From Narcine bancroftii (lineage: Eukaryota), in NCBI RefSeq assembly GCF_036971445.1, contig NC_091473.1:128898001-128962000 (forward strand): a stretch of DNA of 64,000 bases, read 5' to 3'. This document shows positions 3,550-27,805 of this stretch, piece by piece. The position numbers and the translations under genes are program-made. Within the stretch, counting starts at the first letter, position 1, and each line of letters opens with the position of its first letter. The notes beneath the pieces are model-generated. The model was not told the origin of the DNA and did no database searches. It saw nothing but the letters and a program-made list of their open reading frames with translations.

Positions 3550-4785
3550 TGCTAAAGCAACAAACAAGCTATAGCAGGAACTCAGTAGATCAATTACCAT
3601 CTTCAGAGGTAAAGGGATCATCAATGTATCGAGTCAAGACTCTGCATCAAGAGCGCACAAGAGAAACAGCCACTATAGAGTGGCAAGAATGAGGGTTGAA
3701 GCGGGACTTTAACATGTTAGGAGTTACCAGATGAGGAGAGGGAGGAAGTGGTGGGGGTGGGGGTGGGGAGGTGGGGGGGGGGAAGAGAGAGATTCCATCT
3801 CCCAAACCTACAAATACTTTGGCAATAGAACATAAGGCATGGTGTTTACGAAGGCTCCACATTCCTTCTGTAATGGGATGACCAGAATTATACACAGCCC
3901 AGTGCATTCTGTTGCCTGGAGATAAAGCAAAAAGTCTGTAGACACTGATTGTAATTCAAGAGAGAGAGAAAAGCCAGATGGGGTAGAGACAAAAGTGGAC
4001 TTTGTTTTCTGTGGCTGGTGGGTGATAGGTAGTGACAAATTAAAAAAAAGGAAAAGGAGCAAACAAACTGCTGAAGTAACTCTCAGGATCGAGCAGCAGT
4101 TGTGAGGGGAAAGGGACTGTTGACTGTTTGGATTAGATCCAAACCAGTAGTGGAAGGGAAATGGAGAACCAGAAGGTGAAAGGCAGATGGACATTGAATT
4201 TTCCAACTTCAAGTAACCCATACTCCTGTGCTTTTTTTCTCTATCCTTCTGGTCCTCACCCAAACTTTGCTATGACCTAGCTAAATTCCCTCACCCAAAC
4301 ATTTCTGCCTACCTATCACCAATGCATTATGCTTTCTGATTCACCTAACCCCACCCCAATTGGTTCCACCCATCCTTCCTTATCTGGTTCCACATATCTG
4401 ATTCCAAATCTGCAACCTTTTTTTCCACAACACCTTCCAGCCTCTGTCTCTACCTCCATTCTCCCCTCTCCCACTTCACTCCATCTCCCTCCTTTGTTCC
4501 TCAACTCATCTGTCTCTACCTATCATGTACTTGCCACTGACTCCATCATTTCCCTTCCCCACCTGGCTCTATCTCCCTCCTAATTTGGTTCCACAAAACA
4601 CCAGCCAACCACTCCTCACCCCTCTGCTCACTGCTTTATATTGGCTATCTTTCTTCTCCATTCTCAGTTCTGATGAAGGATTTGACCTGGAATGTCAAAT
4701 ATTCCTTTGCCCCCATAGGTATGGCATGATCGATTGAATTCTTCCAACTGTTTTTTTTTGCTCCAGGTTCCAGTTTTGTGTTTTC
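3550..4785. mobile_element. Old Penelope-derived segment with pLTR termini in inverted orientation
   Basis: Minus-strand pLTR end at about 3570-3655 followed by a purine-rich tract. Pyrimidine-rich tract followed by a plus-strand end with CTGATGA at 4670-4676. Confidence 0.55.
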
Positions 4786-4797
4786 TTTCTAAAAAAA

Positions 4798-5500
4798 ATC
4801 TGAATCAGAATTTATTGTCATGAACATGAGTCACAAAATTTATTGTTTTTTAGCAGCTTTACAGGAGCAAAATTGCTATAAATTACATGTTTTAAATAAA
4901 TCAATTAGTGCAAAAGAAGAGAGAAAGTTAGATAGTTTCTGTGGTTCATTGTCCATTCAGAAATCTGATGATAGATGGAAAGAAGCAGCTTTTGTACTGT
5001 TGGATGTTTGTCTTCAGGGTGCCTGGGAATGGGGGTCCTTGATCATAGAGGCTGCTTTCTTGAGACAGCGTCTTTTGTAGACGTCCTGGATGGAGTGAAG
5101 ACAAATGGCCAGCATGTTTCAGAACTCTTTGTGGCCTTTTCTTGCCCTGTGCATTGGCACTCAATACCAGACTGTGATGCAACCAATCAGAATACTCTCC
5201 ACGGTACTCTTGTAGAAATTTCCAAGAGTCTTTGGTAAGTGTGTCTCAGGCATATCTCCTCACTCCTAATGAAGTATAGCTGCCTTCATGAGTGCATCAG
5301 CATGAAGGCACAGGATAGACCTTCAGAGGTGTTGACATCCACGAATTTGAAATTCTTCACCCTTTCCTTTACTAATCCATCAATAAGGACTGGTTTTTGT
5401 TCTCCATGTTTCCCCCTCCTGAAGTCCACAATCAATTCTTTAGTTTTGCTAACGATATTGTCGTGAGAACACTCACCAATCCATCTTCCTCCCGTACTCT
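4798..5500 (-). mobile_element. Rex1/Babar LINE 3' fragment
   Basis: Minus ORF 5286-5561 contains VSKTKELIVDFRR...VERV..FKF. Tail reads gacaataaattctgattcaga. Confidence 0.8.
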
Positions 5501-15924: not shown

Positions 15925-16957
15925 AAACGTGCTGGAGAAACTCTGCTGGCCATGCAGTGTTTACAGAAAGAGAAATGATATAAGCAATATTTCAAGTTCT
16001 GAGCCCTTTGCCAAATACAAGCTAAAATCAGGTAGGCACCTGAATAAAAATGTTGGAAAGAGAGGAGAGAGGGAAGTAGGGGAAACAAGCAAAGTGGATA
16101 TGGGTGAGAGGACAGAAGAGGACAAAGCTGAGAAGTGATATGAGGAGGGGGTAGCTTCCTGAATTGAGAGGGAAGAGGATGTGCAGCAGAAAGAAAGGAG
16201 ACAGAGTGATAGGGAAAGAGACAGGGAAGAGGTCTAATGGAAACTGGAGAAGTTGATGTTATTGCTATATGGTTGAAGAGTGCCCAAACAGAACAGAAGA
16301 TGCTGCTCTTCCAATTTGTGGGTAGTCTTGTGGCAGTGCCACAAGCCCATGGACAGGCTTGTCAGTGCGGGAATGGGGTATGGTATTAAAATGGTTGGGA
16401 GGTCCTTGTTATTGCAGCAGACAAAGCAAAGGTGCTCAGTGAAACAATCTCCCAGTCTGCAATGTAGAGAAGGCCGCAACAGGAGCATGAGATGAAGTAG
16501 ATGACCCCTGCAGATTCACAAGTGAAGTGTTGCTTCACTTGGACGACTGTTTGGGGTCCCAAATGATAGTGAGGAAGGAGGTGTGAGTGCAAGTGTAGAA
16601 TTTCCTGTTGTCATTGAGGTTGGTATCGAAGGCCAACTAGTGAGAAGGGATAAGTGAGTGAGGGAGTCCAAGAGGTGGGACCATGTTGTAGGTGGTGGAA
16701 ATTGCGGAGGATAATATGTTGGATGCAGAGAATGGTGGGATAGTAGGTGACAATAAGGGGAATCCTGTCCTTATTGTGTCTAGGGTCAGAGGAAGTCAGG
16801 CAGATGTATGGGAAATAGAAGAGATGCAAACAAAGGCTGAGTTGATGGCAATAGAGGGGAAGCGATGTTTCTTAAAGGAAGAGAACATCTTGGATGTTGT
16901 GGAATGGAAGACCTCAGGTTTGATGGAGGCAGAGGAATTGTGAGAAAGGCATAGAAT
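15925..16957 (-). mobile_element. Penelope-like element fragment (GIY-YIG region plus pLTR)
   Basis: Minus-strand VKQHFTCESAGVIYFISCSCCGLLYI, RLGDCFTEHL, KLEEQHL.F.LGTLQP and DRIPLIVTYYP. pLTR end at about 15930-16015. Confidence 0.85.
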
Positions 16958-17220
16958 TGTAGTGAAACCACTATTCTACATATTCACTATTACCTTTCCT
17001 GATTGACCCTTCTCTCACTTGCTGGTCATGACTCCTCCCCTATCTTCCCCATAAAGGCTGTCATGTCACAACCTTGCCCTCAGTTCAAGTCCAGGTGTGA
17101 GTGACCAATGCAGGGATGCTGTCCATCTCTTGCAAAGAAAAGCCTTCAGTTTCGATTACTTCAGTCTTTGTGCAATTGATCGTGCACCAATTTTATTTGC
17201 AAGATTTTTTTTCCTGGAAC

Positions 17221-20200
17221 ATGGACAAGTGCATGAAGTTGGATTGCCTAGAAATCAACCCGAGAGAACCCATGGCAGCTAACAAGTTCACGCTCTGGCG
17301 CCACTGTTTCAAAAAGTTCCTCACAGCCTCCGCAACAGCTATCCAGGATGACGAGGATGAGGTCCACCTGCTATTCTCGTACATCAGGAATGGGACTACC
17401 AGAGTTGCAATGGATACCCTGAAGGACCAGTATAAAGTCCAGGTGAATGAGGTCTATGTGTGGCACATACTCCACTCATGCAGGCAGTGACCTGGGGAAA
17501 TCTTCAATTACTTAGTCAGAGCCCTGCAGGAGCTTGCAATTGACTGCAATTGCCAGGATGTGAGTGCAGAACAACATACACAGCTGCTGATCAGAGACGC
17601 CAGTGTAACATGTATCCGCTCTGACTACGTGAAACAGAAGCTACTCGAACAGAGACAACTGAGCCTACCTCATACCATCGAACTGGCGAACACTCTAGAG
17701 GTAGCCATCCACATCGCTGAATCGTTCTCCAGCGAATATGCAGCCACCTCATGGGGAACAAAGGGGCCACCATCTTAGGAGGTGGGATCACAAGGCCCCT
17801 CCCATCCTGAACTGACCACCATTGCTGTTAGCGACCACCTGACCTGATACTTCTTCAGGCAGGCGAAGCACCTGAGGAAACGCTGCGCTGCCAGGGACAC
17901 CATCTACTCTAACTGTGGGTAGAAAGGACACTTTGCGAAGGTCTGTAAGTCCAAACAAACCCCGAAGCGCCGCATGCGAGCAAATGCAGCCATCTTCGAG
18001 GCTGTCACTTCCGGGCACCTGGGACAGCCACACATGCACTACATTGAGACCGCTGACCTCGGTGACATCACTTCTGCCTTCTCCTTTTCTATTTTTGCAC
18101 CATGGGGTGGGGGGGGGGCACCATCTTACTGGACTGCCAGCAGCCAATGGAACTCCTCAGATGACAAGCTGATACTGGCATCAGTAACTCTGGATCAGGA
18201 CACACCCATCAACTCTCCAGGGTCATGATGGACATTCAGATAAACAGCCACCCCACCACTTGCCCATTTGACAGTGGAAGCACTGAAAACTTAATTCACC
18301 CAAACATTGCACAACACTACTCCTTTGGGGTGAAGCCTGCGAGTCACATTATTTCCTTAGCATCCAAATCCCATTCAGCAAAGGGTCATGGCAGTTTCAC
18401 AGTAACACTGACTGTCCAGGGTTTGGTCTATCGTGACTTTACACTCCTCGTGCTGCCACAGCTCTTTGCACCCATCCTAATGGATTAAACTTCCAGTGCA
18501 ACTTAAAGAGTGTCATCATGGAGTATGATAGGCCACATCCCCCCACATGGTCTGTAACGTGCAGTTTTTAAACTACCTGCTCCCCATCACCATGTAGCCG
18601 ACCAGCAGCCCCAAACCCACAGGGCCAACCAGCAACCCCGAACCAAATCACCACGTCTGACATGTGGTCTCTTCATGCTCCAGCTCTCTCCCCCATCCCT
18701 GTTCGCTAATCTCACCCCTGACTGTAAGCCTGTCATCACTAAAAGTCGGCAATGTAGTGCCGGGGGCAGGGCATTTATATGTCAGAGGTGGTGATTTATA
18801 TGTCGAGGGGGTTACAAAAAAGATTGATGAAGGGAAGGCTGTGGATGTTGTCTATTTAGTCTTTAGTAAAACTTTTGACAAAGTTCTTCAAAGGAGATTA
18901 GGAAAAAAGGTGGAGGCATTAGGTATAAATAAGGAGATAGTGAAATGGATTCAGCAATGGTTGGATGGGAGGTGTCAGAGAGTACTGGTAGAAAATTGTT
19001 CATCAAATTGGAGGCCGGTGACTAGTGTGGAGTTCCTCAGAGTTCGGTCCTGGGTCCACTATTGTTTGGTATCTATATTAACGATCTGGAAGAAGGGGTG
19101 GTGAATTGGATAAGTAAGTTTGCAGAGGATACAAAGATTGGTGGTATTGTGGACAGTGAGGAAGATTACCGTAGCTTAAAAAGAAATATAGGAAAGCTAG
19201 AGGAGTGGGTTGAGAAATGGCTGATGGAATTTAATGGGGATAAGTGTGAAGTGTTGCATTTTGGAAAGGCATATCTAAATAGGTCATAAACATTGAATGG
19301 TAGACAATTGAGATGTGCAGAGCAACAAAGGGATTTAGGAGTTATGGTAAATAGTACCCTCAAATTTGATACTCAGGTAGATAGAGTGGTGAAGAAGGCA
19401 TTTGGAATGTTGGCCTTCATAAATCAGAGTATTGAATTCAAGAGTTGGGATGTTATGATGAAATTGTACAAAGCATTGGTGAGGCCAAATTTGGAGTACT
19501 GTGTACAGTTTTGGTCATCAAATTATAGGAAGGATATAAACAAAATAGAGAGAGTACAGAGAAGGTTCACGAGAATGTTGACAGGATGTCAGGGTCTGAG
19601 TTACAGAGAAAGGTTGAGCAGCCTGGGGCTTTTTTCTCTGGAGTATAGAAGACTGAGGGGGGATTTGATGGAGGTGTTCAAGATTTTAAAAGGGACAGAG
19701 AAAGTCAACGTGGATAGGCTTTTTCAATTAAGAGTGGGGGATATTCAAACCAGAGGCCATGGTTTGAGATTGCAGGGGGAAAATTATAAGGGGAACATGA
19801 GGGGAAATTTCTTCACACAAAGGGTGGTTGGGATGTGGAATAAGCTTCCGGCAGAGGTGGTTGAAGCAAGGACGTTATTTACGTTTAAGGAAAGACTCGA
19901 TAATTACATGGAGGGGAGAGGATTGGAGGGGTATGGACCAGGTGCTGGTCAGTGGGACTAGGAGGGTGGGGATTTGTTCCGGCATGGACTAATAGGGCCA
20001 AACTGGCCTGTTCTGTGCTGTATATGGTTATATGGTTATATGGTGAGACTCTTCCTTGCTGAGGGGATGATAGAACAAAGTACAAGCCTCTGGAGAGCCC
20101 AGATAGTGGTGATGAAGAGTGGGGAGAAACACCAGATGGTCATCAATTACTCCCAAACCATCAATAGGTTCACCCGGCTGGACGCATACCCTGTCCCGCA

Positions 20201-22310
20201 TAGCTGACATGGTGAACCAGATTGCACACGACAATGTCCTCTCCACCATAGTCCTTGAGTCCGCATACCACCAGCTCCCCGTCACCCCGAAGTCCGACAG
20301 TATAATCGCCTTCAAGGGGAATGGCCGGCTTTACCATTTCCTGAGGGTCCACTTTGGAGTCACGAATGGAGTGTCAGTCTTTCAGAGACAGATGGATTAG
20401 ATGGTGGATGAATACAGGCTACGGGCCACTTTCCCATACCTTGACATTGTCACCATCTGCGTCCATGATCAGCAGGGCATGATAGGAACCTCTAGAAATT
20501 TCTCCACACTGCAAAATGCCTCAACTTGATGTTTAACACAGGGATGTGTCTCTTCAGCACATGTCACTTGGCTATTCTAGGCTGTATTGTGGAGAATGGA
20601 GTCATCAGTCCCGATCCCAACTGCATGCACCCACTGTTAGAAATCCCTCTCCCCCATTCCCTCAAGGCTCTGAAAAGGTGCCTGGCGTTTTTCTCTTATT
20701 ACGCTCGGTGGGTCCACAGCTACATGGAGAAGTCCCGACCCCTCATCAGGTCCACTGTTTTCCCCCATCAGCAGAAGCCTGGAAGGCATTCGACCATATA
20801 AAAGCTGACATTGCAAAGCTATGATACATACAGTGGACGAATCCATCCTGATCCAGGTTGAGACCGATGCATTGGCCCTTGCCCTGGCCACTACACTTAA
20901 CCAGGCAGGCAGGCCCATAGCATTTTTTTGCGTACCCTCCAGGGCCCTGAGATCCAGCACTCCTCCATTGAGAAAGAGGTCCAGGCTATCGTTGAAGCGG
21001 TATAGCACTGGAGACATTATCTCACCAGTAAGAATTTTACCCTGCTGATCGACCAATGAGCAGTCACTTTCATGTTTAACAATCAGCATCAGGGTAAAAT
21101 CAAAAATGATAAAATTCTGAGGTGGAGAATCGAGCTCTCCACATACAATACAATTATGACACTGCACCGGCCCAGAAAATTCAACGAGCTCTCCAATCCC
21201 CTGTCTCAGGGGAATTGCGCCAGTGATTGATTGCAGGCTCTGCCACCCAGGGATCACTCATTTTTTTCACTTTATCAAGGACCGTAATCTCCTCTACTCC
21301 ATTGAGGACATCTGGACGCTGACCAAAAATTGTCGGGATTGCTTCTACCAGCCTGACCAGTACGCCACTTGCCCCTTTGAACGTTTGAGTATGGACTTCA
21401 AAGGACATCTATCCTCCATGAATCACAATGTGTACTTACAATGTGTACTTCATCACCCTCATCAAAGAGTACTTGCAGTTCCCCTTTGCCATCCACTGCC
21501 CAGACATGATTGCAGCTACTGTCAAAAAGGCTCTGAATAACTTGTTCACCATCTTCGGATACCCCTGCTATGTCCACAGTGACAGGGATTTGACCTTCAT
21601 GAGCAACGAGCTGCATCAATATTTGCTGACCAAAGACATCATCTCTAGCTGGACCACCAGCTATAACCCCAAATGGAATGGCCAGGTGGAACAGGAGAAC
21701 GGCATGGTCTGGAAGGCAGTACTACTGGCCTTAAAGTCCAAAGGCTTCCCATCCCCCACTGGCAAGAAATCCTCACAGAGGTGCTCCATGTTATCTGGTC
21801 CCTGCTGTGTATGGCCACCAATGAGACACCTCATGAGAGACTGTTTACATTCCCCAGGAGACTGGTGTCAGGAACCACCTTACCTACCTGGTTGATGTTC
21901 CCCGGGCCGGTCCTACTCCACAGGCATGTGAGGACCCATAAGTCTGACCCTCTAGTCAAGAGTGTCCAGCTGCTCCACACAAACTCACAGTATGCCTATG
22001 TGGCATTCCCAGACAGGCACAAGGAGACGGTATCTATCCGGGACCTGGCACACATGGGATCCTCTGGAAATCCCCCAAACCAGTCAACAGGTATGCCACC
22101 CCAGCTCTCCAGGGCCTAATTTCCCAACTCCCACCACCCCTGCCAACCTGACAGTTGACACACACACATACCCCCATCCCCTGGCCCAGTCAAGTACCCC
22201 CGCCAAGCCAACCAGGATCAGCTGAAGTCGACGGAGACTGCTAGAGACCCCCGGACAGGGACTTGCCGGTAACAATGCCAAAGAAGACCATTGGACAGAC
22301 TGAACTTATG
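17221..22310 (+). pseudogene. Gypsy gag-pol, disrupted by stops, frameshifts and a CR1 insertion
   Basis: ATG at 17221. Zn-knuckle remnant CGxKGHFAKVC at about 17910. Protease FDSGS at about 18270. RT motifs DAYP, SAYHQ, FGVTNG and PYLD at 20180-20445. RNase H ETDA at about 20860. Integrase VHSDR and NGQVE at 21570-21690. Confidence 0.88.
18795..20040 (+). mobile_element. CR1 LINE, 5'-truncated, inserted in Gypsy pol
   Basis: DVVYL.FSKTFDKV, YINDL, KFAEDTK, RPNLEYCVQFW and FFTQRVV motifs. (TATGGT)n tail. TSD TGGTGA at 18789-18794 and 20041-20046. Confidence 0.93.
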
Positions 22311-23059
22311 AGGGTCGGCTGACCACACTATGCACCCCAGGACTTTCTTTTAAAAGAGGGGGTGAATGTAATGAAAGCACTATTGTACATATTTGTCATA
22401 TGTAAATTACATGACCTTTCCTGGTTGGCCCTGCTCTCACTGGCCAGTTCGTGACTCCTCCCCTTTCTTCCCATAAAGGCTGTCATGCCACAACCCTACC
22501 CCCAGTTCAAGTCCAGGTCAGTGTGAGTGACCAACACAAGGATGCTGTCCATCTCTTGCAAACAAATGCCTTCAGTTTCGATTACTTCAGTCTTTGTGCA
22601 ATTGATCGTACATCAAAAATCCTTCCAGATATGTGTCTTTTTTTTCTCCTTCATTGGTTCTCATCTGTTCTTGGCTATCAGTAAAGTGGGCTTTTGGGTG
22701 TTTTGATTGCATTTGTCCTTGACAACATTGGAGAAACTGCTCATTTCATTATTTCATGGTTATCTTTAGGTTACTGGACCACATTCATTTCACCAACTAT
22801 TGGTTTTGAGCTGAGCCTTCAGGTGCCCATAGAATTGTTTCATCCCCCCCACCCCCCCCCCCTCCTGAGATGTTATTGATTTCCTTGCCCTTGTAGTTAA
22901 TTAGCTCCTAGATTTTCCAGTCTTTCTTATTAAACCTGGACTACATTTTCTTCATTGATATCAATGCTGCTTCTTCACATGTGCTAATTAGGAGGTCTTC
23001 AGGGCAGCCTATACACTGAATTCTCTCTGCTGCTGTTGGTTGATCATTATCAGATTGAC

Positions 23060-25631: not shown

Positions 25632-27805
25632 TGCGGTGATCCCACAGCTATGCTATTTGTTCCATTTGTACTGTCTCTGTGTGTATGGCTGGCCCGCCTC
25701 TTTGCTGACTATCCCTGTGACTCCTCCCCTTGGAATTCCTTGATAAAGGCAGTTATGCCCAAGTCCATCCTCCAGTACGAACCCTGGAATCGGACCAGCA
25801 ACATGAGGGCACGTTCAGTCTTATTGGAATAAAAGCCTATCTTTTGGTAACTTCCATTCTTTTGAAGTTATGTATAGTGTATCATTTTTTTTCCCCATAA
25901 TTTTTTAACGCGATGCACAAGTTGATGAGGCTGGACAAGGTAGACCTTGATACGCAATCGCTCAAAGCCCCAGATCGATTCGAGCTCTGGCTACATTGTT
26001 TCAATGACTTTCTTCAACCCTCTACTCAAATTGTGGGATCAGCTTTGTCTACTACAATTGTGGATTGGTCACCACACCTATACAGTGATCGGAGGCTGCA
26101 CTACTTATGAAGAGGCAATGGAAAAGCTCCAAAACCAGTACAGGCCGAGGACAAACAAGGTCTACACAAGACATTTTCTGGCCAGTCGCTAACAGCAATC
26201 TGGTGAGCCCCTCAAAGAATACTTTCGAGTCCTGCGTGAACTCGGGCGAGCCTGTGGCTGCAGGGATTTTACTGCAGATGTCTATACAGACGAGCTCATT
26301 CGGGACACCTGTGTAGCAGGTGTCCGATCAGATTATATTCTCCAGCAGCTGCAGGAACAGCATGAACTGACCTTGCAGAGGAGATACCCAAAACATTTGA
26401 TGTAGCCCTCAGTAACACGGTCTCATTCTCCTCCGACAACACATGGGTGCTGCATCTTGGGACATGGAGAATCACAGGCTGCCACCATGCAGGGGCACCA
26501 CAACTTCACTTTGGCTGCCGCCACCATTGACCACTTGAAATGCTACTTCTGCGGTCAACAGAAGTACCCCGGGAAGTGATGCCCAGCCAAGAAAGCAGTA
26601 TACTCAGGATGTGGAAAGAAGGGACGCTACGCAAAAGTTTGTAAGTCCAGAATTCTCCTTTCCATAGCAGCACCGCATGTGGGCAGTGGTGGCAGCCACC
26701 ATCTTTCCAGCATCACTTCCAGCGACACTTCTGTCCTCGAGCAACAGCACTGTGTGCACCACGGAGGCTGCCATCTTACCAGTTTAGATCGCTGGCGCGA
26801 CCTTACTGGTCAAGATTGGACAGTGACCTGGACAACCACCTAGTACTGGCATCAATCACACTCAACCAGGATAGCCCTCACCTGCTTGCCTTTTTGATGA
26901 TGGACGTGAAGGTAAATGGTTGCTTAATGAGCTGTCTGTTTGATAGCGGGAGCACTGAGAGTTTTATACACCCCAATACTGTGGAGCATTATTCACTCAT
27001 GGTGACCCCAGCACATTTCAGGATCTCTATGGCCTCCAAATCCTCCTTGGTAGAGATCTGCAGCTACTGCATAGTGACATTGACCATACGTGCCACGAAG
27101 TATAAAAACTTTAAGCTGCTCTGTGCGCCCATGATACTGAGGTTGGACTTCCAATGCCATCTCAAGAGCATCCTTATGGAGTTCAATCCGCCCCATCCTT
27201 CCCCAGGGTCTGCAACCACCAGTTTTTAAACTGCCTGCCCTCCCCTCTGCATGTAACCAAGCAGCAAATCGCGATCCACCCACCACAACCAACCTGCAGG
27301 CTGTCCATCTTCCCCCGACCCTGTTCACCAATCTCACCCTCAATTGTAAGCCTGTCGCTACTAAGAGCAGGCGATACAGAGGAGAGACGGGAGACAGAGG
27401 TAAAACAGCTTCTGTGTGAGGGGATTATTGAACCTAGAGAGCCCACAAACCCCAGGCAAATGGCCAGGTGGAAAGGGAAAACACCACCATGTGGAAGGCA
27501 GTCCTCCTAGGCCTGAAACTGAAAGGCCTGCCCATTTCCCATTGGCAAGAGGTCCTCCCTCAGGAGCTCCACTCATTTAGTCCCTCCTGTGCATGGCCAC
27601 CAGCACCACGCCACATGAACAAATATTTTCTTTCCTCCGGAGGTCCACGTCAGGGACCACACTGCCGTCCTGGTTGATGTCCCCAGGACCAGTTCTGCTC
27701 CTCAGGCATGGACTGTCATAAGATCGACCCACTGGTCTCCTCCACGCCAACCCCCAATATCCCTATGTGACAAACCCAGATGGGCATGAGGACATGGACT
27801 CCAGC
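25632..27805 (+). mobile_element. Internally deleted, 3'-truncated Gypsy (second family)
   Basis: LTR 25632-25884 (TG...CA, AATAAA at 25828). gag ATG at 25913. CYFCG and CGKKG knuckles. Protease LFDSGSTES. Jumps to integrase ERENTTMWKAV with RT/RH missing. Paralogous to 16958-22615. Confidence 0.85.

Follow-up and report, generated by a model that had tools for sequence, protein, structure and literature searches.

We describe a lineage of Ty3/Gypsy LTR retrotransposons in which the 5' LTR is followed at once by 12-19 nt complementary to an arm of the element's own LTR that ends in TAAA(A) and lies 35-66 nt upstream. We conclude with high confidence that this lineage primes reverse transcription with its own RNA, and the primer is probably a 50-65-nt 5' piece of that RNA, cut after AAUAAA(A). 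To our knowledge, fission-yeast Tf1 is the one element with demonstrated self-primed reverse transcription, which is assumed for its chromovirus kin; the lineage described here most likely represents a second, independent form. For a fuller account we put the chances at about even: that in a widespread animal Gypsy lineage self-priming evolved independently of Tf1/sushi, that a capped 50-65-nt front piece is cut at the poly(A) signal, that one stem provides both the primer and the silencing of 5' polyadenylation, and that hundreds of fold-backs record start, cut and primer. If a second self-priming Gypsy lineage is real, tRNA-free priming would be common in animals, and self-priming could use an internal segment linked to the poly(A) signal.

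The window analysed is a 64,000-nt stretch of the Narcine bancroftii genome (contig NC_091473.1, positions 128,898,001 to 128,962,000), and the element occupies 16958-22615 of its forward strand. It is a Ty3/Gypsy LTR retrotransposon, as judged from its LTR pair (16958-17189 and 22367-22615, 84% column identity), a short target duplication (AGAAT at 16953-16957 and AAAAT at 22616-22620, a 4/5 match), its polypurine tract and its protein order. The 5' LTR, bounded by TG...CA in the LTR pair and the family alignment, ends with CA at 17189, and the gag ATG stands at 17221, 31 nt past the LTR. Gag and protease remnants (17221-18485) carry stops and frameshifts throughout, a LINE fragment lies inside the element at approximately 18790-19990, and broken remnants of RT, RNase H and integrase follow in Gypsy order at 19990-22120; the order protease-RT-RNase H-integrase was seen in these pieces together with the polyprotein of a sister family. 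The polypurine tract (22352-22366) has TGAA at its end, as in a young family, and the 3' LTR that follows contains the arm (22554-22567) with no leader partner downstream. The window element is a dead, decayed copy.

The sequence-only reading of this DNA had noted that no TGG tRNA primer-binding site (PBS) follows the 5' LTR and that the leader 14-mer is instead a 13/14 reverse complement of a segment of the LTR; the coordinates of both proved exact. After a 1-nt spacer, A at 17190, the leader TTTTATTTGCAAGA (17191-17204) pairs at 13 of 14 positions with the arm TCTTGCAAAGAAAA (17128-17141), and a match of at least 13 was obtained in 1 of 20,000 dinucleotide shuffles, in which 222 of the 232 LTR bases were shuffled. 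The arm ends in the poly(A)-signal site, where the 3' end of the self-primer is predicted. The loop, made up of the rest of R and U5 (17142-17189), begins with GCC, and the predicted cut falls between 17141 and 17142. A TATA-like box, CATAAAGG, is predicted at 17050-17057, in the same place in family copies and with similar boxes in other families, and an Inr-like TCAGTT lies at 17080-17085; TATA spacing puts the predicted transcription start at about 17082. The arm had been suggested to lie some 50 nt past the likely start, and about 46 nt separate it from the start predicted by the TATA and Inr motifs. The suggested priming geometry, with the 3' end of the pairing strand 1 nt from the U5 edge, was borne out as well; the 1-nt offset is kept in other families. 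ARAGORN detected no tRNA in the window, and Rfam returned no match for the leader and arm.

The genome-wide collection of copies that had been advised as a check showed the complementarity to be conserved within the family and the stems of other families to be compensated. The family set comprised 30 aligned copies, including the window copy, of 40 scored from 2,239 candidates in the 3.3-Gb genome. Arm and leader form 11-14 Watson-Crick pairs of 14 in 30/30 copies, perfectly in 10, with a 1-nt insertion in the arm of one copy ignored by the column count; AATAAA lies within the arm in 23/30, and no leader among the 30 begins with TGG. The predicted MFE fold of the window copy does not contain the stem, and folding z-scores of ray copies were not significant (-0.2 to -1.0), no better than shuffles. 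Two invertebrate copies fold better than shuffles (z of -6.7 and -4.3). Candidate additional pairings of the bases before the arm with the end of U5 were noticed by eye and are not established.

Changes in the stem are matched by changes in its partner across the clade. The lineage has a second, distant family on the forward strand of the window (25632-25900), with a 5' LTR, an arm at 25821-25834 and a decayed leader; its stem differs at 4/14 positions, all four of them compensated, and 18 of its 25 leader-bearing copies pair at 12 or more positions. The element to which it belongs (25632-27750) has an internal deletion that fuses the protease region to integrase. Dozens of other families in the genome have a stem at the same place with different, compensated letters. 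The pattern AATAAAA...TTTTATT, the rest being free, was found at 3,585 genome sites versus 19 for its control, and the ATTAAA version at 4,833 versus 569. One hundred pattern loci were examined, 71 of which were gag-confirmed by profile score, with 50 distinct leaders among these. In the 50 leaders, 303 of 372 positions outside the fixed pattern pair, compared with 47% when arms and leaders were swapped and 92/300 just outside the stem. The loop begins with GCC at 57 of the 71 gag-confirmed loci.

Against circularity, loci were also selected by RT and integrase protein motifs alone. A matched gag start was available for 37 of 87 such loci from metagenomes and MAGs, and 31 of these 37 carry the stem; three lack the 5' end and three (L174, L200, L201) are without any stem. 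Among 16 distinct outside families, each family's own leader paired at 12-14 of 14 positions and another family's leader did so in 9/240 swaps, a test that omits L171, which the pattern missed. About 8 of the 16 have a small hairpin past the arm. Genome copies selected by RT share the same leader among the matches listed, one ATTAAA element included. Constant features of the lineage are the leader start 1 nt past the CA of the LTR, a loop of 35-66 nt, and the TAAA(A) arm end, followed mostly by GCC or ACC. Other Gypsy groups of the genome have ordinary leaders, one of which is TGG at the same 1-nt offset. In an integrase-first Gypsy family (L301-L310), leaders begin TAATTTGGGG, several bases ahead of a tRNA-like segment. 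A search for gag homologs gave no matches, and a scan of IMG/VR found no relatives. Animal-type LTR elements lying within bacterial MAG contigs (L221-L227) are likely host contamination of the assemblies.

A further check advised was to place the RT in a Gypsy phylogeny and see whether it falls in a known self-priming clade. The lineage lies outside the chromoviruses in a quick RT tree and is without a chromodomain. Chromo and SH3_Tf2-1 domains gave no match in the whole polyprotein of the sister family or in the scanned window pieces and are absent from the Pfam lists of the 120 nearest homologs, whereas they are present in the chromovirus set. In a quick, unrooted maximum likelihood tree of RT-RNase H (53 rows, no Tf1 row among them and a long branch for the window row), the lineage, with 33 rows, stands on one side and 14 fish elements with a chromodomain on another, with SH-aLRT of 100 each. 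The tree has four separate groups: the lineage, the fish chromoviruses, the integrase-first Gypsy elements and the TGG family. Because of the missing chromodomain and the separate RT group, we do not regard the lineage as a member of Tf1/sushi, although part of its proposed mechanism is shared with that group. Its RT motif is YLDN and its gag has two CCHC-like knuckles. For the sister family, the best protein match, at 99% identity, is an entry whose name points to an electric ray, and relatives, by entry names, come from sharks and rays, a sea anemone and nematodes.

Other placements were considered. We take "Gmr1-like" to denote integrase-first Gypsy elements and "Mag-type" to denote tRNA-primed ones. 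A Gmr1-like identity is ruled out, as integrase does not precede RT, and a Mag-type identity was rejected with 0/30 copies having a TGG PBS while a control family in the same genome has one. Saci2/lennie was rejected as a clade name, those elements being reported with tRNA PBSs and lennie with 4-bp duplications. A literature search on the YLDN motif for a published clade name gave no match.

The closest known parallel is with Tf1 and Tf2 of S. pombe, Tj1, Tosmo and other Tf1/sushi chromoviruses, which, in the available text of 10.1101/2022.12.06.519325 and PMC4600332, have no tRNA PBS and carry a post-LTR site complementary to their own LTR RNA. In both groups the primer would arise by cleavage on the 3' side of the paired stretch; the Tf1/sushi primer, however, is the very 5' end of the mRNA, held in a three-duplex 'pretzel', and the chromodomain is present. 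In the lineage described here the stretch of LTR that pairs runs up to the poly(A)-signal site, a predicted 50-65 nt from the RNA 5' end, there is no chromodomain, and the RT forms a separate branch. Self-priming has also been predicted from sequence in plant Tcn1 chromoviruses and in the TAR elements (Houba, Osr-1) of Ty1/copia, which points to repeated origin (PMC6317226, available part); these are other lineages in other hosts, and that part of the article contains no link to a poly(A) signal. Fungal GalEa Copia elements, as far as the accessible text of PMC5445492 goes, have no PBS and have a Conserved Hairpin Site, an inverted repeat beginning at the LTR end, but that repeat has both arms downstream of the LTR, no partner within the LTR was found by the authors, and the elements belong to the Copia superfamily. 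No description of the present arrangement stands in the available parts of PMC3601003, PMC6934838, PMC12471100, PMC6317226, PMC4600332, 10.1101/2022.12.06.519325, PMC4558846, PMC13524379, PMC5445492 and PMC11042837. The literature search as a whole gave no description; the original Tf1 papers, Repbase entries and supplements were outside its scope and may hold a prior mention. Elements of the lineage escape PBS-based annotation and presumably also silencing by tRNA fragments.

We propose that priming starts from the complementarity between leader and LTR arm. Transcription would begin about 50-65 nt before the arm end. The RNA would then be cleaved on the 3' side of the paired arm; the element's own RNase H is the probable enzyme, by analogy with Tf1, in which RNase H cleavage yields an 11-nt primer. 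The cut would leave a 3'-OH one base from the U5 edge. Minus strong-stop DNA would then run back only to the cut and would jump to the RNA 3' end by means of the few bases that arm and poly(A) site have in common, a step that fossil products support; poly(A) spacing is 10-30 nt. Of five sequencing runs listed, all contigs and none recorded as RNA, four were aligned and revealed neither transcript starts nor ends; an A-rich loose end 11 nt past the arm in one run is too weak to use. Plus-strand synthesis would copy the primer back into the PBS, and we propose that arm and PBS are kept matched for this reason. As a secondary effect, in families with the poly(A) hexamer in the arm, this hexamer would be hidden by the stem at the 5' LTR only.

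Independent support for self-priming comes from fold-back inserts, in which the LTR end and 1 nt are followed by the reverse complement continuing upstream of the arm. Four families contain 254, 191, 39 and 3 such junctions, with the smallest count in the window element's own family, and each control has 0. The 254 belong to the young sister family and show LTR sequence where the tRNA-primed control carries tRNA-like sequence. A perfect 5-bp target duplication flanks 11/14 palindromic inserts whose two ends were exact; 5-bp duplications also flank 7/7 composite inserts with both ends in view and 3/5 double fold-backs, and therefore the fold-back molecules were made before integration. The inverted flanks of L370, another palindromic insert, mean that it is of genomic origin.

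Ninety of the 254 young-family fold-backs were mapped, 43 with a whole left LTR and 47 with a partial left piece. In the former the inverted arm reaches LTR nt 1, or breaks off early and switches to another place. Of the partial left pieces, 31/47 start within nt 181-202, around the arm end at 192, and 0/47 at the predicted start (nt 136-143). Nine of 18 short right arms end at nt 136-143 (seven independent events, the Inr being at 141), seven at nt 148-171 and two in U3, a count that omits L327, whose arm continues to the LTR start. In five double fold-backs the inverted U5 turns back at nt 190-194. The simplest reading is that plus-strand synthesis sometimes copied the whole primer and that minus strong-stop DNA ends at the arm edge. 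Arms that reach LTR nt 1 can, however, arise by snap-back from any primer matching the PBS, and the 181-202 cluster need not reflect an RNA cut, because the boundary of the hairpin stem and loop lies at the same place and DNA snap-back can be its source. Breakpoints within 10 nt of the arm end recur in two older families (7/14 and 6/13 mapped partial pieces). The start-site cluster is confined to the young family: in the ATTAAA family 0/30 fold-backs end at the 53-57 nt predicted in advance (breakpoint mapping was without result in 14/30), and in the third family, where mapping was without result in 8/30, short arms of about 39-47 nt did not replicate it. In one further case, L383, the left LTR lacks nt 142-190, so that the predicted start is joined to the arm end.

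A tRNA-primed family provides a control for this approach. In a TGG-PBS Gypsy family of the same genome, 20 copies (15 of them examined) captured about 25-55 nt of tRNA-like sequence by the same accident, reading through the tRNA T-arm before jumping. Rfam did not call these pieces tRNA outright; it gave a T-arm match to a tmRNA model of the tRNA clan and a match to a plastid family that reads like antisense tRNA, and on these matches we presume them to be tRNA. Several captures in this family (L473-L487) stop near the anticodon region. Integrated read-through products thus offer a general and cheap method of reading primer identity, validated on the tRNA-primed control.

The fold-backs also bear on whether the primer might act in trans, as the arm of the 3' LTR after the RNA 3' end is trimmed or cut past AAUAAA, or as a second or prematurely terminated RNA. 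Most fold-back arms do pass through U3 to LTR nt 1, two events (L356/L357; L434) run past the LTR start into the polypurine tract or internal sequence, as a 3'-end template would give, and one left breakpoint in the third family (L460) lies at the predicted start. On an uncut template, however, strong-stop DNA should reach the start, where none of the 47 left breakpoints falls while 31 lie at the arm end, and 16/18 short arms have their end in the interval from the predicted start to the arm; we consider this source of the primer unlikely. More doubtful still is plain priming of the Tf1 type, in which transcription would start at the first base of the arm and the primer would measure 12-19 nt. 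RNA starts are predicted here from motifs, and short invertebrate LTRs have no clear TATA box, which leaves this explanation some room, but in many ray families a TATA-like box lies about 85-95 nt and an Inr-like motif 50-65 nt before the arm end, and short fold-back arms of the young family reach back to the upstream Inr. Motifs and these fold-back ends point to a start some 40-50 nt ahead of the arm, a position that the fold-backs of the two older families did not reproduce. We judge plain Tf1-type priming very improbable.

The stem might alternatively serve only to hide the poly(A) signal of the 5' LTR, or serve packaging, with an unspecified host RNA or tRNA fragment as primer. The arm always ends in TAAA and contains AATAAA or ATTAAA in 9/16 outside families, and the 5' LTR is the one place where the stem can form, all as such a role would have it. 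The leader, though, always starts 1 nt past the LTR end, like the TGG PBS of the control family, and, with dozens of different stems, a host primer would need to be a different one for each. Moreover, read-through products contain LTR sequence rather than host RNA, and a canonical hexamer lies outside the stem in 3/6 families with non-canonical arms, so that we hold this explanation to be improbable, somewhat less so than the plain Tf1 type. Against half-tRNA priming, in which the PBS would match an internal tRNA segment, the number of different stems is the only argument. A chance match of A/T-rich sequence has next to no probability: half of the stem is A/T-rich and the folding z-scores of ray copies are weak, but the shuffle, swap and outside-stem controls speak against it and covariation excludes it. 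Self-priming by the cut 5' piece remains our preferred reading.

Beside priming, the sequence-only reading had proposed that the stem, forming locally only at the 5' LTR, could mask premature polyadenylation. The restriction to the 5' LTR stands and masking is likely as a side role, but it is not universal. The hexamer of a young copy is enclosed by the stem in the 5' context; in the 3' context it falls within a local hairpin that is weaker. Seven of the 16 outside families have no canonical hexamer in the arm, one by likely mutation, and three of the other six have AATAAA or ATTAAA in the loop, outside the stem. Because these three keep a canonical hexamer outside the stem, masking cannot be the universal reason for it, and with seven such arms priming looks primary and masking secondary. 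In HIV-1, base pairing in the poly(A) hairpin hides AAUAAA at the 5' LTR; unlike the stem described here, that hairpin is local within R and present at both ends, and priming is by tRNA.

Several inserts of the lineage have unusual structures. In palindromes of 433 bp (L323, L324, L328, L347, L348 and others), one LTR is joined to an inverted U3-R and both ends are U3; these inserts have 5-bp target duplications and could be mistaken for MITEs. Two young full elements (L132, L134) have internal inversions between near-identical LTRs, which suggests frequent template switching by the RT of the lineage. Fold-back junctions also occur in tandem arrays with 278-bp and 90-bp periods (L462-L464, L421-L424 and G000:C9:30112841-30114257).
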